A DNA stretch of 64,000 nucleotides, from assembly GCF_003018255.1 (NCBI RefSeq), contig NZ_CP027440.1; one strand, given 5' to 3'. The notes under the pieces were generated by a model. It ran no database searches and had not been told where the DNA came from. It saw only the letters and a list, made by a program, of their open reading frames with translations. Made by a program: the position numbers and the translations under genes. This DNA is from Escherichia coli (GTDB taxonomy: Bacteria; Pseudomonadota; Gammaproteobacteria; Enterobacterales; Enterobacteriaceae). Of the stretch, positions 1 to 57,085 are shown piece by piece. Every line of letters starts with the position of its first letter. Within the stretch, counting starts at the first letter, position 1.

Positions 1-1
1 A

Positions 2-757
2 ATTATTGAGGATTTAATCGCCCGTAAGGTTAATGCAATTACAATTGTGCCAAACGATGCCAACGTGCTGGAACCGGTATTCAAAAAAGCGCGAGATGCC
101 GGAATTGTGGTTCTGACCAACGAATCCCCCGGTCAGCCAAGTGCTAACTGGGATATCGAAATCATTGATAACGAAAAATTTGCCGCTGAATATGTTGAAC
201 ATATGGCGAAACGCATGGGTGGCAAGGGCGGCTATGTGATTTACGTGGGTAGTTTGACCGTGCCGCAGCATAACTTATGGGCTGACTTGCTGGTGAAATA
301 CCAGAAAGAGCATTACCCGGATATGCATGAAGTTACCCGCCGCATGCCGGTTGCCGAGAGTGTGGATGACTCACGTCGTACCACACTGGACCTGATGAAA
401 ACCTATCCTGACTTGAAAGCGGTTGTCTCCTTTGGTTCAAACGGTCCGATTGGCGCGGGACGTGCAGTGAAAGAGAAACGGGCGAAAAATAAAGTCGCAG
501 TCTATGGCATGATGATCCCTTCACAGGCGGCATCACTGATTAAAAGTGGTGATATCACCGAAGGGATTACTTACGATCCGGCCTCTGCAGGTTACGCACT
601 CGCGGCCGTCGCCAGCACGTTGCTGAAGGGTGAAGAGATCAAACCTGGATTAGAAATGCAGAATCTCGGTAAGGCCGACGTAGATATGGATAAGCGAATT
701 ATCCGTTTCCATAAGGTATTACTGGTCAACAAAGACAATATCGACTCACTTTATTAA
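2..757 (+). CDS. periplasmic sugar-binding protein of an ABC transporter (5' partial; type I periplasmic-binding fold, RbsB/LsrB-like)
   Basis: Reading frame is open from the window edge and in frame with track ORF 47..757; followed directly by a two-domain ABC ATPase and two permeases. Confidence 0.8.
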   Translation: MIEDLIARKVNAITIVPNDANVLEPVFKKARDAGIVVLTNESPGQPSANWDIEIIDNEKFAAEYVEHMAKRMGGKGGYVIYVGSLTVPQHNLWADLLVKYQKEHYPDMHEVTRRMPVAESVDDSRRTTLDLMKTYPDLKAVVSFGSNGPIGAGRAVKEKRAKNKVAVYGMMIPSQAASLIKSGDITEGITYDPASAGYALAAVASTLLKGEEIKPGLEMQNLGKADVDMDKRIIRFHKVLLVNKDNIDSLY

Positions 758-767
758 TCCATTTCTT

Positions 768-783
768 CGGGGCGAAAGCCCCG
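768..783 (+). promoter_or_regulatory. intercistronic stem-loop (cggggcgaaagccccg) between binding-protein gene and ATPase gene
   Basis: Perfect 5-bp GC stem with a 6-nt loop seen in sequence; position typical of hairpins that stabilise the upstream binding-protein transcript. Confidence 0.4.
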
Positions 784-805
784 ATTCTTATTGCCAGGGG
801 ATGCT

Positions 806-2290
806 ATGGAAACCTTCCTTTCCCTTCGTCATATCAACAAAACGTTTCATGCCACGCGAGCGCTGCGCGATGTTTCTCTCGACTTTATGTCGGGTGAGGT
901 GCACTGCCTTGCCGGGCAAAACGGCTGTGGTAAATCGACGTTGATTAAAATTATGTCCGGTGTTTATCGCCCGGATGAGGGGGCGGAAATTACGCTTGGT
1001 GGGAAAAACTGGTCAAAGCTGACACCCGCCGCTTCGGTGGCGCAGGGGATTCAGGTGATTTATCAGGACCTCTCTTTATTTCCTAACCTGAGTGTCTGGG
1101 AGAATATCGCCGTGAATCACTATCACCACGGTCTGTTTGTTAACCGCCGTCGTCTGCGTGAGGTGGCGCAGGCGGCAATGACCAGTATTAACGTCACATT
1201 GCCACTGGATACGCTCGTTTCTGAGCTTTCAATTGCCCGCTGTCAGCTGGTGGCAATTTGCCGTGCACTGGCGCAGGACGCACGGTTGATCGTGATGGAT
1301 GAACCAACCGCTTCGCTGACCCATCAGGAAGTGCAAGGGTTATTACAGGTGGTGCATCAATTGCGGGAACGCGGGATCTGCGTGGTCTTCGTCAGTCATC
1401 GTCTGGAAGAAGTGATGGAAGTTTCCGACCGTATTTCAGTGCTGAAAGATGGTGAGCTGGTCGGGACCTTTCCGGCCGCAGAGATGACCACAAAACAACT
1501 CAGTTTTCTGATGACCGGCCAGGAGTTCGAATATCAGGTACGAGAGTTGTGGCAGGGAAAATCCAGCACCCCGGTGCTGGAGGTGCGTAATTTAAGTCGT
1601 CATGGGGAATATCAAAATATTAACTTGCGGGTGGAAGCGGGCGAAGTGGTGTCGATTGTTGGCCTGCTTGGTGCGGGGCGCACGGAATTATGTCTGAGTC
1701 TGTTTGGTATGACCCGACCGGATGCTGGTGAGATCCTCATCAACGGTCAGCCGGTTACACTGCATAGTAACCAGGACGCCATCCGCCACGGTATTGGTTA
1801 TGTTTCGGAAGATCGCATGTCGCGCGGTTTGGTGATGGCGCAATCTATTGAAGACAACATCATTAGCACTGTTTTTCACAAGGTAAAAGATCGCTTCGGC
1901 TTTCTGAGTGAAGCTAAAGTGCGTGACCTGGTGGACAGGCTAATCAAGGCATTGACCATCAAAGTCTCTGACCCACATCTCCCGGTGAATACGCTTTCCG
2001 GGGGTAACGCGCAGCGAGTATCGATCGCCAAATGGCTGGCGATTGGGCCACGACTGTTGATTCTCGATAGCCCGACTGTCGGTGTTGATATCGCCAACAA
2101 AGCAGGAATATACGGCATTATCAGCGATCTGGCGGCTCATGGCATTGCGGTATTGATGATCTGCGATGAAATTGAAGAAGCGTGGTATCAAAGCCACCGG
2201 ATTTTGGTAATGCAAAAAGGTCAGATCACCCATAGCTTCCTGCCTGACAGCAGTTCTCAGGCCAGGATTGCGGAGGTGGTAAATGGCTGA
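806..2290 (+). CDS. sugar ABC transporter ATP-binding protein with duplicated ABC domains (RbsA/XylG-like)
   Basis: Two Walker A motifs (GQNGCGKST and GLLGAGRTE) and an LSGGNAQR signature; track ORF begins at TTG 791, in-frame ATG at 806 preceded by GGGGA. Confidence 0.85.
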   Translation: METFLSLRHINKTFHATRALRDVSLDFMSGEVHCLAGQNGCGKSTLIKIMSGVYRPDEGAEITLGGKNWSKLTPAASVAQGIQVIYQDLSLFPNLSVWENIAVNHYHHGLFVNRRRLREVAQAAMTSINVTLPLDTLVSELSIARCQLVAICRALAQDARLIVMDEPTASLTHQEVQGLLQVVHQLRERGICVVFVSHRLEEVMEVSDRISVLKDGELVGTFPAAEMTTKQLSFLMTGQEFEYQVRELWQGKSSTPVLEVRNLSRHGEYQNINLRVEAGEVVSIVGLLGAGRTELCLSLFGMTRPDAGEILINGQPVTLHSNQDAIRHGIGYVSEDRMSRGLVMAQSIEDNIISTVFHKVKDRFGFLSEAKVRDLVDRLIKALTIKVSDPHLPVNTLSGGNAQRVSIAKWLAIGPRLLILDSPTVGVDIANKAGIYGIISDLAAHGIAVLMICDEIEEAWYQSHRILVMQKGQITHSFLPDSSSQARIAEVVNG

Positions 2291-3254
2291 ACTGAAAAAA
2301 CGCCATGAATTCTGGCTGGCATTACTGATTGTGGTGCTGTTTGTTGGCCTTGCCTGGCGCAGCGACGAGTTTCTGACATTCGGTAATTTGTACGATCTCG
2401 CCAATAACTATGCCATGTTGACTATTCTCGCCTGTGGTTTGTTTGTGGTGTTAATTTCCGGTGGGATTGATATTTCGTTTCCGGCAATGACCATCATTGC
2501 GCAATACGGCATGGTGCTGTTGCTGCAAAAAATTGGTGGCAACTTTGCTGTTGCGTTTGCCCTGGCGGGCGGCATCGGCATTTTACTTGGCTTAATTAAC
2601 GCCTTACTGGTTAATCGCCTACGGGTGCCTTCTATCATCATCACTATCTCGACGCTGAATATTTTCTATGGCCTGCTGTTATGGTTGAGTAAAGGTGTGT
2701 GGCTGTACGACTTTCCGCCGTGGTTTGAGCAGGGGGTTATGTTGTTCAAGTACACCGATGCTGATGGCTATGACTATGGCCTTGGTCTACCGCTGATCGC
2801 CATGATTACGGTGGTGCTGCTAACAGCGTTTATCATGAATTTCACCAGTGTAGGGCGCAAAATTTATGCCCTTGGCGGGAACCGTGAATCCGCCAGTCGC
2901 ATCGGCTTTAGTGTGCTGAAACTGCAACTTTTCGTCTATGGCTATATGGGATTGATGTCTGGTGCTGCGGGTGTAGTGCAGTCGTGGACGGTGATGACTG
3001 TCGCCCCCGATTCTCTTCTGGGTTATGAGCTGACAGTACTGGCTGCGGTGGTGCTTGGCGGCACTAGTTTGCTCGGCGGGCGCGGCACGTTAACCGGTAC
3101 TTTGCTCGGCGTGGTGTTGTTGGCAGTGATGCAAAACGGGCTAAATTTATTGGGAGTCTCGTCTTACTGGCAAACATTGATCACCGGCATCATCATCGTT
3201 GCCAGCATTAGCGCCACGGCGTGGAGTCAGCATCAGAACCGGAGTCTGCTATGA
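2283..3254 (+). CDS. sugar ABC transporter permease (RbsC/branched-chain family)
   Basis: Hydrophobic multi-TM protein; ATG 2283 lies 5 nt upstream of the ATPase stop, so the two genes overlap by 8 bp. Confidence 0.85.
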   Translation: MAELKKRHEFWLALLIVVLFVGLAWRSDEFLTFGNLYDLANNYAMLTILACGLFVVLISGGIDISFPAMTIIAQYGMVLLLQKIGGNFAVAFALAGGIGILLGLINALLVNRLRVPSIIITISTLNIFYGLLLWLSKGVWLYDFPPWFEQGVMLFKYTDADGYDYGLGLPLIAMITVVLLTAFIMNFTSVGRKIYALGGNRESASRIGFSVLKLQLFVYGYMGLMSGAAGVVQSWTVMTVAPDSLLGYELTVLAAVVLGGTSLLGGRGTLTGTLLGVVLLAVMQNGLNLLGVSSYWQTLITGIIIVASISATAWSQHQNRSLL

Positions 3255-4207
3255 AAAAATCGTGGCGTAACAACGTTGAGTTTTACTTGATCGGCCTGCT
3301 GGTGCTAACTGTTGCAGCCTTCAGCATTACTATGCCGGAGATTTTCTGGTCGATAAGTAATTTCCAGTCCGTCGCTTCGCAAATGCCCGTGCTGGGCATT
3401 CTGGCGTTGGCTATGGCGGTGACCATGCTTTGCGGTGGCATTAACTTGTCAATTATAGCCACTGCTAACGCCTGTTCACTGGTGATGGCGTGGGTGGCGA
3501 CTCAGTATCCACCGGGTATTGCTACGGTTGTCGCTACGCTGCTGGCGGGCGCTGGCGCGGCGGTGATAATCGGTTTATGTAACGGCGTATTGATTGCTGG
3601 TATTCGAGTGTCGCCAATTCTTGCAACACTCGGGATGATGACGTTGCTCAAAGGGGTAAATATTCTGGTGACAGGCGGTAGCGCCATTGCCAATTATCCC
3701 TCATGGGTGCTGTGGTTGAATCATGCACAGTGGTTCGGTATTCCGCTACCGATGTGGTTGTTTACCGCAGTGGCGCTGGGGCTGTGGATATTGCTGGAGA
3801 AAACGCCGCTCGGTAAATCCATTTATCTGATTGGTTCTAACGAACGAGCAACACTTTACTCCGGTATTAACACTCGTCGGGTGCTGATATGGGTGTATGT
3901 CATTTCCGCCTTGCTTTGTGCGGTAGCGGCATTTTTGATGATGTCGAAACTCAACTCGGCTAAGGCCTCTTATGGCGAATCGTACTTGCTGGTGTCAATC
4001 CTCGCGGCAGTACTCGGCGGGGTTAATCCGGACGGCGGCAGCGGGCGGATAATTGGTATGGTGCTGGCGCTGTTTCTTCTGCAAATTATTGAAAGCGGCT
4101 TCAATATTCTCGGTATAAGCCCCTACCTGACGATGGCCTTATGGGGAACGTTGCTGCTCTGTTTCATTCAGGCTCGCGGCATGTTAGGGCTGGATCGGGT
4201 GGTTTAA
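3251..4207 (+). CDS. sugar ABC transporter permease, second subunit
   Basis: ATGA start/stop overlap with the upstream permease at 3251-3254, GGAG 7 nt upstream; track ORF starts at GTG 3221. Confidence 0.8.
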   Translation: MKKSWRNNVEFYLIGLLVLTVAAFSITMPEIFWSISNFQSVASQMPVLGILALAMAVTMLCGGINLSIIATANACSLVMAWVATQYPPGIATVVATLLAGAGAAVIIGLCNGVLIAGIRVSPILATLGMMTLLKGVNILVTGGSAIANYPSWVLWLNHAQWFGIPLPMWLFTAVALGLWILLEKTPLGKSIYLIGSNERATLYSGINTRRVLIWVYVISALLCAVAAFLMMSKLNSAKASYGESYLLVSILAAVLGGVNPDGGSGRIIGMVLALFLLQIIESGFNILGISPYLTMALWGTLLLCFIQARGMLGLDRVV

Positions 4208-4293
4208 ATATTGGCTATATTCAATGGACGCGTTTTGCCGCGATGACATATCAGGCATCGCCAAATACACATAGCTAATCAGGAGTAAACACA

Positions 4294-5343
4294 ATGAAGA
4301 TCAAAGCTGTTGGTGCATATTCCGCTAAACAACCACTTGAACCGATGGATATCACCCGGCGTGAACCGCGACCGCATGATGTCAAAATCGAAATCGCTTA
4401 CTGTGGCGTCTGCCATTCCGATCTCCACCAGGTCCGTTCGGAGTGGGCGGGGACGGTTTACCCCTGCGTGCCGGGTCATGAAATTGTGGGGCGCGTGGTA
4501 GCTGTTGGTGATCAGGTAGAAAAATATGCGCCGGGCGATCTGGTTGGTGTCGGCTGCATTGTCGACAGTTGTAAACATTGCGAAGAGTGTGAAGACGGGC
4601 TGGAAAACTACTGTGATCACATGACCGGCACCTATAACTCGCCGACGCCGGACGAACCGGGCCATACTCTGGGCGGCTACTCACAACAGATCGTCGTTCA
4701 TGAGCGATATGTTCTGCGTATTCGTCACCCGCAAGAGCACCTGGCGGCGGTGGCTCCTTTGTTGTGTGCAGGGATCACCACATACTCGCCGCTACGTCAC
4801 TGGCAGGCCGGGCCGGGTAAAAAAGTGGGCGTGGTCGGCATCGGCGGTCTGGGACATATGGGGATCAAGCTGGCCCACGCGATGGGGGCGCATGTGGTGG
4901 CATTTACCACTTCTGAGTCAAAACGCGAAGCGGCAAAAGCCCTGGGGGCCGATGAAGTTGTTAACTCACGCAATGCCGATGAGATGGCGGCTCATCTCAA
5001 GAGTTTCGATTTCATTTTGAATACAGTAGCTGCGCCACATAATCTCGACGATTTTACCACCTTGCTGAAGCGTGATGGCACCATGACGCTGGTTGGTGCG
5101 CCTGCGACACCGCATAAATCGCCGGAAGTTTTCAACCTGATCATGAAACGCCGCGCGATAGCCGGCTCTATGATTGGCGGCATTCCAGAAACACAGGAGA
5201 TGCTCGATTTTTGCGCCGAACATGGCATCGTGGCTGATATAGAGATGATTCGGGCCGATCAAATTAATGAAGCCTATGAGCGAATGCTGCGTGGTGATGT
5301 GAAATATCGTTTTGTTATCGATAATCGCACACTAACAGACTGA
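4294..5343 (+). CDS. yahK: NADPH-dependent aldehyde reductase, zinc-type alcohol dehydrogenase family
   Basis: 349 aa; GHEIVGRV zinc-ADH motif and GxGxxG (GIGGLGHMG); AGGAGT RBS upstream; matches my recollection of E. coli YahK. Confidence 0.9.
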   Translation: MKIKAVGAYSAKQPLEPMDITRREPRPHDVKIEIAYCGVCHSDLHQVRSEWAGTVYPCVPGHEIVGRVVAVGDQVEKYAPGDLVGVGCIVDSCKHCEECEDGLENYCDHMTGTYNSPTPDEPGHTLGGYSQQIVVHERYVLRIRHPQEHLAAVAPLLCAGITTYSPLRHWQAGPGKKVGVVGIGGLGHMGIKLAHAMGAHVVAFTTSESKREAAKALGADEVVNSRNADEMAAHLKSFDFILNTVAAPHNLDDFTTLLKRDGTMTLVGAPATPHKSPEVFNLIMKRRAIAGSMIGGIPETQEMLDFCAEHGIVADIEMIRADQINEAYERMLRGDVKYRFVIDNRTLTD

Positions 5344-5778
5344 AAAAATTAATAAACATCCTGTGGTTTAACATATTAACTTCGCTCCACTTAACTTTTT
5401 AGTTAAGGAGAGCGAAATAATATCAAAGTAGTGGTAAACCTATAGCGTAAATTCAGATTGTTAAATTAACTCCACTACTTTACACGTTAGTTATGAGCGA
5501 TTTCTGATAGTGTCTGGTTTAATCAGAGCTTTATTATCTGCGACGTTTATTTTTATTTAATAGAGCCACCTGCAAGTTGTTATTCCACCAGAGAGTGAAT
5601 CGCAAAGCAGGTAATCATTTCATCTGTATATCTGTATGCCAACTGGCATTCCATCTCTTTTTTCGCCGATATTTTGTTGTGATCGGCGACACTTCGCTTA
5701 AAAAAGCATCAGCAGTGGTTTCGCAGCTATGCGGTGTATAAAAAATGATCTCATGCAGATGTTTTGTGAATGTGTGGG

Positions 5779-5806
5779 TTGACATTCATATGAAAAAAAT
5801 CATAAT
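5779..5806 (+). promoter_or_regulatory. candidate sigma70 promoter (TTGACA, 16-bp spacer, CATAAT) pointing toward yahM
   Basis: Near-consensus -35 and -10 hexamers seen in sequence inside a 620-bp AT-rich non-coding spacer. Confidence 0.3.
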
Positions 5807-5964
5807 TCCATCATGTTTGTGTGGGGTCTTTTCTGTATCTTACGCATCGCACTCAAGCCTGACAGAAAATATGCTGTAAGGCTCATATCAAAAACCGCCA
5901 TTAGCTCATCAGGAAGAGCAGACGACAACCAGGATTGTTGTATGGTACGGGGTTCGAGGCCTCG

Positions 5965-6210
5965 ATGGCGGTCCAGCTTTTCAAAACTCTTCTGAATCAG
6001 ATCCCCTTATTATCATTCCTGCAAAGTGGAACATTGCCATTGTTTGGCTATTCAGGACGGGTCAGACCAATGAAAAAAGCCCACACAGGGGAGAGTGGGC
6101 TGAAATGGGAAGCTAAAGACTCAAGTAAACTTATCGGAAATAAGGACCACGCATTACGGGGGCTATCATCGCCGATGGTCGGGATTCGGCAAATCAGGTT
6201 GATTACGTAG
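5965..6210 (+). CDS. yahM: small protein YahM
   Basis: 81-aa ORF from ATG 5965 (GAGG 7 nt upstream) inside track ORF 5935..6210 (TTG start); the 16-bp gap to the convergent yahN matches the K-12 layout as I recall it. Confidence 0.55.
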   Translation: MAVQLFKTLLNQIPLLSFLQSGTLPLFGYSGRVRPMKKAHTGESGLKWEAKDSSKLIGNKDHALRGLSSPMVGIRQIRLIT

Positions 6211-6226
6211 AGAGTAAATTATCTGC

Positions 6227-6898
6227 TCACCGCTGCGTCACCCCTTCGTAAATCAGGCGTAGCGCGAATACACCAATAATTGCACCAATAACCCGACTGG
6301 CAACGCGTTGCATACGCCCATAAGCACGACGCACTGCGGGCAAAGAAAACGCCTGACTAAGAAAAACGCGCCAGATAACTGATGCGAGCACAATCCCCGC
6401 CCAGGCCATTAAACGTGCCCATGTTGGTGTTTCGGCATTTAATGTTACTGAGAAAATACTAATAAAAAATAAAACGGTTTGCGGGTTAGAGAGATCGGTA
6501 ATTAATCCGCGACGAAAAAAGACATACCAGGGGGCGTTAATCGGTTGTTGTAGTGTGCTCATTTGCGGTGTTGACTGGCGGCGCATGCTGCACCACGCAA
6601 ACCATAAGAGATAAGCGCCGCCGACGATTCTGATAAGCGAAAAAATCTCCTCACACTGCGTAATTAGCGTTGCAAGACCAAACAAACCCAACCCGGAATA
6701 AAATGCATCGCCCAGCGCCACGCCCAGTCCGGTCAGCACTCCTGCGCGTCGACCGGAAGCCAGGCTGGTTTGTACTACCACAAAGAGATTGGCTCCCGGA
6801 TTAAAAAAAGTAATCACGAACAGTCCTACGGTCAGGTAAACGGCGTGCAAAGGATCCATAGTGATTTCATCCATAAATAAGTGAACTAACTGCATCAT
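6227..6898 (-). CDS. yahN: LysE/RhtB-family amino-acid exporter
   Basis: 223-aa hydrophobic protein matching E. coli YahN. Confidence 0.9.
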   Translation of the reverse strand: MMQLVHLFMDEITMDPLHAVYLTVGLFVITFFNPGANLFVVVQTSLASGRRAGVLTGLGVALGDAFYSGLGLFGLATLITQCEEIFSLIRIVGGAYLLWFAWCSMRRQSTPQMSTLQQPINAPWYVFFRRGLITDLSNPQTVLFFISIFSVTLNAETPTWARLMAWAGIVLASVIWRVFLSQAFSLPAVRRAYGRMQRVASRVIGAIIGVFALRLIYEGVTQR

Positions 6899-10165: not shown

Positions 10166-10256
10166 ATGCCTGATGCGCCGCTGACGCGACTTATCAGGCC
10201 TACGAGGTGAACTGAACTGTAGGTCGGATAAGACGCATAGCGTCGCATCCGACAAC
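10166..10256. repeat. REP pair (BIME) in the prpB-prpC intergenic region
   Basis: gcctgatgcgccgctgacgcgacttatcaggcctac ... gtaggtcggataagacgcatagcgtcgcatccgaca palindromes. Confidence 0.8.
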
Positions 10257-14876: not shown

Positions 14877-15143
14877 GTCGGATAAGGCGCTCGCGCCGCA
14901 TCCGACACCGTGCGCAGATGCCTGATGCGACGCTGACGCGTCTTATCATGCCTACAGGCCTGAACCGTAGGTCGGATAAGGCGCTCGCGCCGCATCCGAC
15001 ACCGTGCGCAGATGCCTGATGCGACGCTGACGCGTCTTATCATGCCTACAGGCCTGAACCGTAGGTCGGATAAGGCGCTCGCGCCGCATCCGACACCATG
15101 CGCCGATGCCTGATGCGACGCTTACGCGTCTTATCATGCCTAC
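14873..15143. repeat. tandem BIME array: three ~94-bp units each carrying inverted REP palindromes
   Basis: The unit gtaggtcggataaggcgctcgcgccgcatccgaca...gatgcctgatgcgacgctgacgcgtcttatcatgcctac restarts at 14873, 14967 and 15061. Confidence 0.9.
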
Positions 15144-17863: not shown

Positions 17864-17946
17864 ATGCCGGATGCGGCGTGAACGCCTTATCCGGCCTACG
17901 TAGAGCACTGAACTCGTAGGCCTGATAAGCGTAGCGCATCAGGCAA
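17864..17946. repeat. REP pair (BIME) downstream of codA
   Basis: gccggatgcggcgtgaacgccttatccggcctac ... gtaggcctgataagcgtagcgcatcaggca. Confidence 0.8.
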
Positions 17947-35089: not shown

Positions 35090-35150
<61 letters not shown>

Positions 35151-35225: not shown

Positions 35226-36437
35226 ATGTCGACTCGTACCCCTTCATCATCTTCAACCCGCCTGATGCTGACCATCGGGCTTTGTTTTTTGGTCGCTCTG
35301 ATGGAAGGACTGGATCTTCAGGCGGCTGGCATTGCGGCGGGTGGCATCGCCCAGGCTTTCGCACTCGATAAAATGCAAATGGGCTGGATATTCAGCGCCG
35401 GAATACTCGGTTTGCTACCCGGCGCGTTGGTTGGCGGAATGCTGGCGGACCGTTATGGTCGCAAGCGCATTTTGATTGGCTCAGTTGCGCTGTTTGGTTT
35501 GTTCTCACTGGCAACGGCGATTGCCTGGGATTTCCCCTCACTGGTCTTTGCGCGGCTGATGACCGGTGTCGGGCTGGGGGCGGCGTTGCCGAATCTGATC
35601 GCCCTGACGTCTGAAGCCGCGGGTCCACGTTTTCGTGGGACGGCAGTGAGCCTGATGTATTGCGGTGTCCCCATTGGCGCGGCGCTGGCGGCGACACTGG
35701 GTTTCGCGGGGGCAAACTTAGCATGGCAAACGGTGTTTTGGGTAGGTGGTGTGGTGCCGTTGATTCTGGTGCCGCTATTAATGCGCTGGCTGCCGGAGTC
35801 GGCGGTGTTCGCTGGCGAAAAACAGGCTGCGCCACCACTGCGTGCGTTATTTGCGCCAGAAACGGCAACCGCGACGCTGCTGCTGTGGTTGTGTTATTTC
35901 TTCACTCTGCTGGTGGTCTACATGTTGATCAACTGGCTACCGCTGCTTTTGGTGGAGCAAGGATTCCAGCCATCGCAGGCGGCAGGGGTGATGTTTGCAC
36001 TGCAAATGGGGGCGGCAAGCGGGACGTTAATGTTGGGCGCATTGATGGATAAGCTGCGTCCAGTAACCATGTCGCTACTGATTTATAGCGGCATGTTAGC
36101 TTCGCTGCTGGCGCTGGGAACGGTGTCGTCATTTAACGGTATGTTGCTGGCGGGATTCGTCGCGGGGTTGTTTGCGACAGGTGGGCAAAGCGTTTTGTAT
36201 GCCCTGGCACCGTTGTTTTACAGTTCGCAGATCCGCGCAACAGGTGTGGGAACAGCCGTGGCGGTAGGGCGTCTGGGGGCTATGAGCGGTCCGTTACTGG
36301 CCGGGAAAATGCTGGCATTAGGCATTGGCACGGTTGGCGTAATGGCCGCTTCTGCGCCGGGTATTCTTGTTGCTGGCCTGGCAGTATTTATTTTGATGAG
36401 CCGGAGATCACGAATGCAGCCGTGCGCCGATGCCTGA
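35226..36437 (+). CDS. mhpT: MFS transporter for 3-hydroxyphenylpropionate
   Basis: 403 aa from ATG 35226 (MSTRTPSSSS); track ORF starts 23 codons upstream. Confidence 0.9.
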   Translation: MSTRTPSSSSTRLMLTIGLCFLVALMEGLDLQAAGIAAGGIAQAFALDKMQMGWIFSAGILGLLPGALVGGMLADRYGRKRILIGSVALFGLFSLATAIAWDFPSLVFARLMTGVGLGAALPNLIALTSEAAGPRFRGTAVSLMYCGVPIGAALAATLGFAGANLAWQTVFWVGGVVPLILVPLLMRWLPESAVFAGEKQAAPPLRALFAPETATATLLLWLCYFFTLLVVYMLINWLPLLLVEQGFQPSQAAGVMFALQMGAASGTLMLGALMDKLRPVTMSLLIYSGMLASLLALGTVSSFNGMLLAGFVAGLFATGGQSVLYALAPLFYSSQIRATGVGTAVAVGRLGAMSGPLLAGKMLALGIGTVGVMAASAPGILVAGLAVFILMSRRSRMQPCADA

Positions 36438-36538
36438 CGCGCCTTATTAAGCAGGGGCGAAAGGGACTTGCCCCCAATACACCTACGGCGTTTACAGGTA
36501 TACTCGCTAAAAATTATTCAGCGGGTTTGGAAACAAAG

Positions 36539-37078
36539 ATGGCAAAACTTACCTTACAAGAGCAGTTGCTCAAAGCAGGATTAGTCACCAGCAAAAAAGC
36601 GGCGAAGGTCGAGAGAACGGCGAAAAAATCGCGCGTTCAGGCGCGTGAAGCTCGGGCGGCGGTAGAAGAAAATAAAAAGGCACAGCTTGAGCGTGATAAA
36701 CAGCTTAGCGAACAGCAAAAACAAGCGGCGTTGGCGAAAGAATATAAAGCCCAGGTGAAGCAGCTCATTGAAATGAACCGAATCACCATTGCCAATGGCG
36801 ATATTGGTTTTAACTTCACTGACGGCAATCTGATTAAGAAGATTTTTGTCGATAAGCTCACACAGGCGCAGTTGATTAATGGTCGTCTGGCGATTGCCCG
36901 CTTGTTGGTCGATAACAATAGCGAAGGTGAATACGCCATTATTCCCGCCAGTGTTGCCGATAAAATTGCTCAGCGTGATGCCAGCAGTATTGTGTTGCAC
37001 AGCGCGCTCAGCGCCGAAGAGCAGGATGAAGACGATCCGTATGCCGACTTCAAAGTGCCTGATGATTTGATGTGGTAA
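36539..37078 (+). CDS. yaiL: DUF2058-family protein with Lys/Glu-rich N-terminal region
   Basis: 179 aa from ATG 36539 (MAKLTLQEQLLKAG); track ORF starts 39 codons upstream. Confidence 0.85.
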   Translation: MAKLTLQEQLLKAGLVTSKKAAKVERTAKKSRVQAREARAAVEENKKAQLERDKQLSEQQKQAALAKEYKAQVKQLIEMNRITIANGDIGFNFTDGNLIKKIFVDKLTQAQLINGRLAIARLLVDNNSEGEYAIIPASVADKIAQRDASSIVLHSALSAEEQDEDDPYADFKVPDDLMW

Positions 37079-37091
37079 ACATAGATAAGCC

Positions 37092-37292
<201 letters not shown>

Positions 37293-37304
37293 GTGCGCGG
37301 ATGC

Positions 37305-38138
37305 TCAACGCATATTCAGTTTATTGGCGTGGTACGCAATATGCTCGCCAATAAAACTGGAGACAAAATAATAGCTGTGATCATAACCCTCGTGATAACG
37401 GATTAACGTTTTGATATTCATCTCCTGGCAGATCTTTTCAAGATTTGGAGTCCGCAGCTGTTCTGCGTAAAAATCATCACTCAACCCCTGATCAACCATT
37501 ATTTCCGCAACGCGTTGACCTTGTGAAATAAGACTCACCGGATCGTAATCCAACCAGGCATCTTTATTTTCACCAAGATATGCGGTAAAGGCTTGCTGTC
37601 CCCACGGTACTTGCGATGGGGAGACAATGGGCGCAAACGCCGAGACGCTGACATATTCATCTGGGTTACGTAACGCCAGCACCAGCGCGCCCAGCCCGCC
37701 CATAGAATGACCTGAGATAGACTTTCTGGTCGTTGCCGGAAAATGTTGCATCACTAAATCCGGCAGCTCGTTGCGGATATAGTCATACATTTTGTAATGT
37801 TCATTCCACGGCGCTTGCGTTGCGTTCAGGTAAAACCCGGCACCTTGCCCGAGATCGTAACGGTCGGCATCTGCGACATGACTGCCTCGCGGACTGGTGT
37901 CTGGCGCAACAACAATAATGTTGTGCTCAGCCGCGTAACGCTGCATCCCCGATTTAGTAATGAAATTCTGCTCGTTGCAGGTCAGGCCTGAAAGCCAGTA
38001 CAACACCGGCAATTTTTCATTTGCGGCTTTTGGCGGGAGATAGACGCCGACATTCATTTCACATTTCAGTGATGGGGAATAATGCCGATACACATTTTGC
38101 CAGCCGCCAAAGCTGGCATGTTTTTCAATGAGTTCCAT
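37305..38138 (-). CDS. frmB: S-formylglutathione hydrolase
   Basis: 277 aa esterase with GHSMGG serine motif. Confidence 0.95.
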   Translation of the reverse strand: MELIEKHASFGGWQNVYRHYSPSLKCEMNVGVYLPPKAANEKLPVLYWLSGLTCNEQNFITKSGMQRYAAEHNIIVVAPDTSPRGSHVADADRYDLGQGAGFYLNATQAPWNEHYKMYDYIRNELPDLVMQHFPATTRKSISGHSMGGLGALVLALRNPDEYVSVSAFAPIVSPSQVPWGQQAFTAYLGENKDAWLDYDPVSLISQGQRVAEIMVDQGLSDDFYAEQLRTPNLEKICQEMNIKTLIRYHEGYDHSYYFVSSFIGEHIAYHANKLNMR

Positions 38139-56984: not shown

Positions 56985-57085
56985 TGCCGGATGCGGCGCG
57001 AACGCCTTACCCTGCCTACAAAATCATGCAAAATCAGTATATTGCAATTATCTGGTAGGCCTGATAAGCAAAGCGCATCAGGCAA
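56985..57085. repeat. REP elements between yaiZ and ddlA
   Basis: gccggatgcggcgcgaacgccttaccctgcctac ... gtaggcctgataagcaaagcgcatcaggca. Confidence 0.8.

Follow-up and report, generated by a model that had tools for sequence, protein, structure and literature searches.

The yaiL locus

The window analyzed here is a stretch of 64,000 nucleotides of Escherichia coli DNA, in which yaiL follows mhpT on the same strand and converges with frmB/fghA. The following features lie at the locus:

36454–36474, plus strand: hairpin GGGGCGA-AAGGGAC-UUGCCCC, between mhpT and the yaiL promoter
36476–36504, plus strand: putative sigma-70 promoter of yaiL, consisting of a −35 element AATACA (36476–36481), a 17-nt spacer and a −10 element TATACT (36499–36504)
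36511–36538, plus strand: predicted 5′ UTR of yaiL, about 28 nt, its start placed from the −10 element
36539–37078, plus strand: yaiL coding sequence, 179 codons plus TAA, DUF2058 family; the ORF translation and the RefSeq annotation have the same coordinates
37088–37304: two tandem BIME units of about 101 bp with four REPs, direct repeats between the convergent yaiL and frmB/fghA
37305–38138, minus strand: frmB/fghA, convergent with yaiL (RefSeq)

The mhpT stop codon is at 36437, leaving a gap of 101 bp, close to the 100 bp given in a preliminary description of this DNA that was made from the sequence alone. RefSeq names the product of 36539–37078 yaiL, "DUF2058 domain-containing protein", and the Pfam profile DUF2058 (PF09831) matched the protein over its entire length (positions 1–174 of 174) with 199.2 bits (cut-off 25, E = 7e-59), the sole match of YaiL in Pfam and NCBIfam profile searches. 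The locus was present in 5324 of 5426 complete E. coli genomes, presence being defined as coverage of at least 80% of a 1101-bp query that spans it. The list of open reading frames also contained a GTG-extended version of yaiL (218 amino acids, 36422–37078, plus strand), which overlaps the end of mhpT, and an antisense frame of 139 amino acids within yaiL (36581–37000, minus strand). Since the family alignment begins at the ATG at 36539, and a conserved −10 element lies inside the extension, we regard both alternatives as by-products of ORF listing.

Both the gene and its family are already annotated, and yaiL is in that sense a known object. What the present analysis adds is the anatomy of the protein together with its invariant motif at the C terminus, the footprint of a promoter, a domain that is unmatched among solved structures, and a short list of candidate partners. 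YaiL belongs to the E. coli genes without an assigned function, and it is unusually well conserved for that set. A search of a literature library for yaiL and DUF2058 found no functional paper, with mentions confined to lists and figure legends. PA0937 is presumably the DUF2058 homolog of Pseudomonas aeruginosa. One proteomics table gives it as a "hypothetical protein" (PMC10805311); "yaiL" in another paper appears to be a typographical error for yaiI (PMC5499597), and the supplements of a third do not mention yaiL (PMC9959377).

Family range and selection

The DUF2058 family comprises 1257 clusters at 50% identity, 709 of them with E ≤ 1e-10. Nearly all members are 170–190 residues long and match end to end, with the same layout in the members examined. 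All named members are from Gammaproteobacteria, including Enterobacterales, Vibrionaceae, Glaciecola, Simiduia, Microbulbifer, Kangiellaceae, Pseudomonas, and Acinetobacter. E. coli YaiL is 86–89% identical to the proteins of Serratia, Pectobacterium, Yersinia, Rahnella, and Hafnia, but only 76–83% identical to those of its closer relatives Citrobacter, Kluyvera, Leclercia, and Pseudescherichia, a pattern that could result from unequal rates or from transfer.

Where dS was unsaturated, dN/dS (Nei-Gojobori) ranged from 0.04 to 0.08, and non-synonymous divergence (pN) was low in all regions of the protein. Because dN/dS is as low as about 0.04 and pN is low throughout, yaiL is, judged from its substitution pattern, a functional gene under strong purifying selection.

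Anatomy of the protein

We modeled the YaiL monomer with AlphaFold2 from a 105-sequence alignment, and derived a conservation profile from an alignment of 105 diverse DUF2058 members. Five parts can be distinguished:

36539–36586, plus strand: conserved N-terminal motif, residues 1–16; MAKLTLQEQLLKAGLV in E. coli, family consensus M..SLQDQLLKAGLV
36587–36688, plus strand: basic part of the long helix, residues 17–50; variable in sequence and length, positive charge kept
36689–36775, plus strand: conserved C-terminal part of the long helix, residues 51–79; amphipathic
36776–36997, plus strand: compact alpha/beta domain, residues 80–153; beta-beta-alpha-beta-beta-alpha-beta
36998–37075, plus strand: acidic tail, residues 154–179, ending ...DDPYADFKVPDDLMW-COOH; family mean charge −7.0

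The model has a mean pLDDT of 91.5, with lower confidence in the tail, and predicts a short helix (residues 6–12), an uninterrupted 62-residue helix (residues 18–79) and a compact alpha/beta domain (residues 89–153). The preliminary description had anticipated both a helical N-terminal half and a compact C-terminal domain, and the model agrees with it on these two points. YaiL has the layout of the family throughout, that is, an N-terminal motif of the SLQDQLLKAGLV type, a long basic helix, an alpha/beta domain and a C-terminal ...PDDLMW. Seven residues are invariant in the 105-member alignment (Q9, G115, Y168, P174, D175, D176, and W179), all of which are present in E. coli; in the N-terminal motif, which contains the first of them, G14 is also shared by at least 90% of the members.

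The long helix divides into two parts of very different conservation. In its basic part, column entropy is high, and the length of the helix region ranges from 60 to 76 residues across the family, yet the net charge of residues 15–50 remains positive in all 105 diverse members (mean +7.4, range +3 to +13). In YaiL itself, net charge is +9 over residues 1–80, 0 over residues 81–155 and −8 over residues 156–179. Lys, Glu, Ala, Gln, and Arg together account for 65% of residues 1–80 and 73% of residues 17–76, which confirms the enrichment noticed previously, although "almost entirely", as the first 80 or so residues had been described, is an overstatement. In the C-terminal part of the helix, by contrast, individual positions are conserved (R52, D53, K54, L56, 57, K67, A71, Q72, Q75, L76, and I77), position 57 being Asn in the family and Ser in E. 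coli. We infer that this helix end packs on the globular domain.

A coiled coil, which the preliminary description had suggested for the N-terminal half, is not supported. In the family profile, the strongest periodicity of residues 18–60 is 2.9, instead of the 3.5- or 7-residue hydrophobic periodicity of a coiled coil, and hydrophobic residues occur only at positions 21, 24, 42, and 50. Residues 55–79 have a periodicity peak at about 7; since this segment holds only about 3.5 repeats, we take it as an amphipathic helix end. Fold matches of YaiL to coiled-coil proteins reflect the single straight helix only. On the basis of the model, residues 17–50 are a charged, solvent-exposed helix and not a coiled coil.

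Within the alpha/beta domain, the conserved residues are F93, G115, A140, K142, I143, and R146. A fold search with this domain gave no significant match among solved structures, and no chain in the PDB matched YaiL or the family profile, with structures of the E. coli ribosome and its assembly intermediates included. Likewise, fold and profile searches detected no OB fold or other nucleic-acid-binding fold in YaiL. The preliminary description had left room for a well-defined enzyme family that structure prediction or homology might reveal; none emerged, as sequence, profile and fold searches gave no significant match of YaiL to any enzyme family.

A likeness of the N-terminal SLQDQLLKAGL to the N-terminal helix of Hfq was also considered. 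The Hfq helix is SLQDPFLNALRRE. BLAST gives no such alignment, and therefore the likeness is treated as due to chance.

The C-terminal peptide

The acidic tail with its terminal P-D-D-L-M-W-COOH is the most conserved feature of YaiL, and one that was absent from the preliminary description. Its consensus is DDPYAD(F/Y)x(V/I)PDDLMW-COOH, in which Y168, P174, D175, D176, and W179 are the invariant residues given above and L177 is found in at least 90% of members; the last 16 residues in E. coli are EDDPYADFKVPDDLMW. When proteins were searched with the pattern [YF]x[IV]PDDL[MI]W, 593 of the 600 reference-genome matches and 582 of the 600 metagenome matches were family members, and the C-terminal motif alone thus appears almost diagnostic of DUF2058. 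Invariant C-terminal peptides with a terminal aromatic residue are typical docking motifs.

The sequence properties of an SSB-type tail (acidic and hydrophobic, with a C-terminal aromatic residue bearing a free carboxylate, family-wide) are all found in ...VPDDLMW-COOH. The C-terminal tip of SSB, DDDIPF-COOH, is a docking peptide for genome-maintenance proteins, and this motif serves about 17 partner proteins (PMC5872125; PMC7145534). By analogy, both proteins would have an acidic, probably flexible and highly conserved tail that ends in acidic-acidic-hydrophobic-x-aromatic-COOH, attached to a part that binds nucleic acid, or in YaiL may do so. However, YaiL differs from SSB in that an OB fold was not detected, and in that its motif is PDDLMW with a conserved DDPYADY upstream.

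Gene neighborhoods

Two sets of loci were compared. In the reference set, ORFs were called in 80 reference-genome loci from about 70 species and the neighbors were clustered; the metagenome set consisted of 80 independent, non-enterobacterial loci. The neighbor counts below are raw counts, and the loci are not phylogenetically independent.

The flanking genes of yaiL vary from genus to genus. Nevertheless, three genes stay beside it in many Enterobacterales, in shuffled order: those for an RluA-family pseudouridine synthase (17 loci), a 160-residue cold-shock-domain protein (13 loci) and an 81-residue protein (7 loci), with Pfam DUF2543 being matched by two immediate neighbors. The shuffled cluster was seen in our loci L004–L048 (e.g., L005 6001–7883, L008 5423–6820, and L045 6001–7850). 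Of this cluster, E. coli has yaiL alone at the locus, with none of the RNA-related neighbors. A Pfam census of 122 immediate neighbors was headed by PseudoU_synth_2 (15), CSD (10), LysR (6) and DEAD helicases (5, two of them DbpA), LysR regulators being ubiquitous.

Beyond the enterobacterial cluster, several neighbors connected with 23S rRNA recur. DbpA is adjacent to yaiL, or one gene away, in Edwardsiella and Vibrio, and occurs in four loci of the metagenome set; its adjacency was found in at least four different gene arrangements. A Pseudomonadales MAG has the order yaiL-rluE-dbpA, and rluE is adjacent in another MAG. In a distant marine gammaproteobacterium, genes for pseudouridine synthases lie on both sides of the homolog, on the same strand. 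An RlmA-like 23S G745 methyltransferase was found in four metagenome loci, in three of which it lies directly downstream and co-directional, and rlmG and rlmD lie 1.2 kb from the Simiduia homolog and 4.5 kb from the P. aeruginosa homolog, respectively. EarP with EF-P recurs as well, in four metagenome loci. The RluA-like and RlmA-like neighbors score below the NCBIfam equivalog cut-offs, and therefore their substrates are putative.

At positions ±4 of the same loci, 139 genes served as a control, and no family had more than two members there, indicating that synteny has fully decayed around a few retained neighbors. A broad enrichment of translation genes was also considered and rejected: translation-related neighbors make up only about 7% of the metagenome set overall, a share near a rough genomic baseline. 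For this reason we counted only the specific recurrences, i.e., DbpA and several 23S rRNA-modifying enzymes. In the metagenome set, DsbA, LpxB, cytidine deaminase and a GST resembling YghU are equally frequent neighbors. With these counts in view, the recurrence of genes for 23S rRNA enzymes is suggestive of a link to RNA or the large ribosomal subunit.

A possible role of YaiL

Taken together, the best explanation of these features is that YaiL is a cytoplasmic, non-enzymatic protein of an adaptor type, belonging to the gammaproteobacterial DUF2058 family. As to what it might adapt, we tentatively favor a link to RNA or to the large ribosomal subunit, in which the basic helix would bind and the C-terminal peptide would dock a partner. 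Helices whose charge is conserved while their sequence is free are typical of non-specific nucleic-acid binding. Accepting this reading, the long positive helix (residues 17–50) would bind nucleic acid non-specifically by charge, most likely a structured RNA, for example 23S rRNA or a precursor of it. The small alpha/beta domain, together with the conserved end of the helix, would make up a structural core. The C-terminal peptide, DDPYADF.VPDDLMW-COOH, might then act as a short linear docking motif, either recruiting a partner protein, for instance a helicase acting on RNA or an enzyme that modifies rRNA, or folding back onto the basic helix and thereby gating its binding.

An association with nucleic acid or the ribosome had already been suggested in the preliminary description from amino acid composition. 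The conserved charge of the helix and the recurrent 23S rRNA-enzyme genes are consistent with that suggestion, and we infer the association itself from these indications. Against it stand the absence of YaiL from solved ribosome structures, the lack of RNA-related neighbors in E. coli, and the recurrence of non-RNA genes in the neighborhoods.

DarP/YjgA (DUF615) is a small, highly charged, helical, ribosome-associated factor of E. coli. Factors of this type offer an analogy: YaiL is likewise small and rich in Lys, Arg, Glu, and Gln, has a long helix, and is encoded beside 23S rRNA enzyme genes in several lineages. However, YaiL has no sequence or profile similarity to other Pfam families and is absent from solved ribosome structures, and its helix is accompanied by a globular domain and an acidic motif at the C terminus.

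In a more far-reaching and rather doubtful version of the RNA-linked reading, DUF2058 proteins would constitute an undescribed class of cofactors for large-subunit rRNA maturation in Gammaproteobacteria, whose helix binds 23S precursors, whose PDDLMW-COOH is a new docking motif through which DbpA-type helicases, or pseudouridine synthases and methyltransferases, are recruited or regulated, and whose domain has a fold that is new to the PDB. Experiments now have defined elements to address, namely a mappable promoter, a helix of conserved charge, the invariant peptide formed by the last six residues, and DbpA and 23S rRNA modification enzymes as candidate partners. Should the rRNA link hold, bacterial ribosome biogenesis would gain one factor and one docking motif; should it fail, yaiL would stay an ordinary conserved hypothetical gene.

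Alternative to binding RNA, YaiL might work through proteins only, as a scaffold or regulator in which the helix is a rigid spacer or a dimerization element and the terminal motifs bind proteins or, in an antiparallel dimer, each other. Conservation is strongest in two short peptides at the termini, as would be expected of linear motifs; the helix is long, exposed and rich in Glu, Lys, Arg, and Gln like single alpha-helix spacers; pairing of the basic half (+9) with the acidic tail (−8) is conceivable, in one chain or across two; and the searches described above found no nucleic-acid-binding fold. However, a spacer would be expected to be balanced in charge, whereas the helix keeps a net positive charge across the family (+3 to +13), the recurrent neighbors of yaiL are RNA enzymes, and a coiled-coil dimer is unsupported as no heptad pattern was found. 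We therefore consider a purely protein-binding role unlikely.

A role in DNA metabolism seems less probable again. In this case, the helix would bind DNA, and the acidic tail would mimic, or compete with, the C-terminal tip of SSB for SSB-interacting proteins, an idea that draws on the analogy between the invariant D-D-L-M-W-COOH of YaiL and D-D-I-P-F-COOH of SSB, both being acidic and hydrophobic with a terminal aromatic residue and a free carboxylate. RecQ-type helicases in two Vibrio loci and a photolyase-related DPRP in three metagenome loci would fit such a role, as would older annotations as "nucleoprotein/polynucleotide-associated enzyme", which are annotation labels only. However, the resemblance to SSB extends over five residues, the extended conserved tail DDPYADY.IP is absent in SSB, an OB fold or other DNA-binding fold was not detected, and DNA-related neighbors are fewer and less widespread than rRNA-related ones.

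Transcription of yaiL

To examine the promoter region, we aligned the 99 nt preceding the start codon in 27 enterobacterial genera whose upstream genes differ. A −10 element stands about 35 nt before the ATG, with the sequence TATACT in E. coli and TATAAT in the majority of the genera; all 27 genera agree at four of its six positions, and at least 90% agree at a fifth. The −35 region is weak (AATACA in E. coli and GGTACA elsewhere), which is why a simple consensus scan missed the promoter. Also conserved across genera are ATTACAGG, directly 5′ of the −10 element, and the leader (36505–36538), which contains a weak Shine-Dalgarno sequence and reads AAATTATTCAACGGGTTTAGAAACGAAG in the majority of genera; together they may be a regulator site or a translation-initiation signal. 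RNA folding predicted no stable structure for the leader. A sigma-54 promoter was considered too, as in a few genera a conserved CTGG(T/C)ACAG upstream of the −10 element looks like a −24 element; it was rejected because the GC of the −12 element is not conserved.

Since the −10 element is conserved whatever gene lies upstream, yaiL would have a promoter of its own that does not depend on mhpT, and the alignment argues that yaiL is an autonomous transcription unit with its own promoter-like element. Between mhpT and this element, the hairpin at 36454–36474 is not a canonical intrinsic terminator, because it lacks a U tract. A terminator scan called none upstream of yaiL and gave two terminator-like hits inside the coding sequence; folding of the whole mhpT-yaiL intergenic region was not significant (z-score −1.78). 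Read-through from mhpT into yaiL is possible, as the only intergenic hairpin has no U tract.

The preliminary description had implied a link to mhpT by its emphasis on the position of yaiL, and this link is not supported. Among the loci compared, the E. coli context (mhpT and frmB) is not shared outside Escherichia; the adjacency of mhpT and yaiL is found in E. coli only, with different upstream genes in E. albertii and about 70 other species. It is hardly conceivable, then, that YaiL assists the mhp (3-hydroxyphenylpropionate) pathway and that its gene is transcribed together with mhpT, which encodes the transporter: yaiL does lie on the same strand 101 bp 3′ of mhpT with no canonical terminator between them, but this adjacency is confined to E. 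coli, yaiL has its conserved promoter-like element, and the DUF2058 family is far more widespread than the mhpT context.

Mobile elements

An origin of yaiL in phages or anti-phage defense was considered and rejected, with no PHROG or PADLOC hit. "Phage" records with a yaiL homolog are short unannotated fragments or apparent bacterial contigs. One of them, a 107-kb contig labeled "Acinetobacter phage MD-2021a" (CAKLQH020000011.1; our locus L173), has maf, sstT, msbA, gcvH, and cobB around the homolog, and two hits in a phage collection (H19 and H20) are Salmonella records of 501 kb, apparently bacterial chromosome contigs.

A plasmid origin was rejected as well. The hits in E. coli plasmids are episomes of 214–242 kb from K-12 or laboratory cultures, which we read as F-primes, and records of 1.2–4.9 Mb. 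In P. aeruginosa, positions 1–6279 of one locus (L174, NZ_CP131792.1) contain a DUF2058 gene beside lpxO2 and 1.2 kb from mazG-relA-rlmD; NZ_CP131792.1 is typed as an 847-kb conjugative plasmid.

The downstream BIME array

Convergent genes are the usual surroundings of BIMEs, and the array between yaiL and frmB/fghA is of this kind. The preliminary description had reported a double BIME after yaiL, and two repeats of about 100 bp with four REPs were indeed found, the palindromes lying at 37102–37137, 37154–37188, 37202–37238, and 37255–37289. A search of Rfam returned no RNA families besides the REP-derived naRNA4, which matched 37157–37235 on the plus strand with 81 bits against a gathering score of 59.5. 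The naRNA4 family consists of nucleoid-associated REP RNA. The match corresponds to the second and third REPs of the array jointly, and that on the minus strand falls just below the gathering score. The window contains further REPs of the two types seen in this array, at 10168–10203, 14920–15143, 17865–17899, 35098–35132, and 56985–57019; those at 14920–15143 form a triple tandem, and one of the copies lies between mhpE and mhpT.
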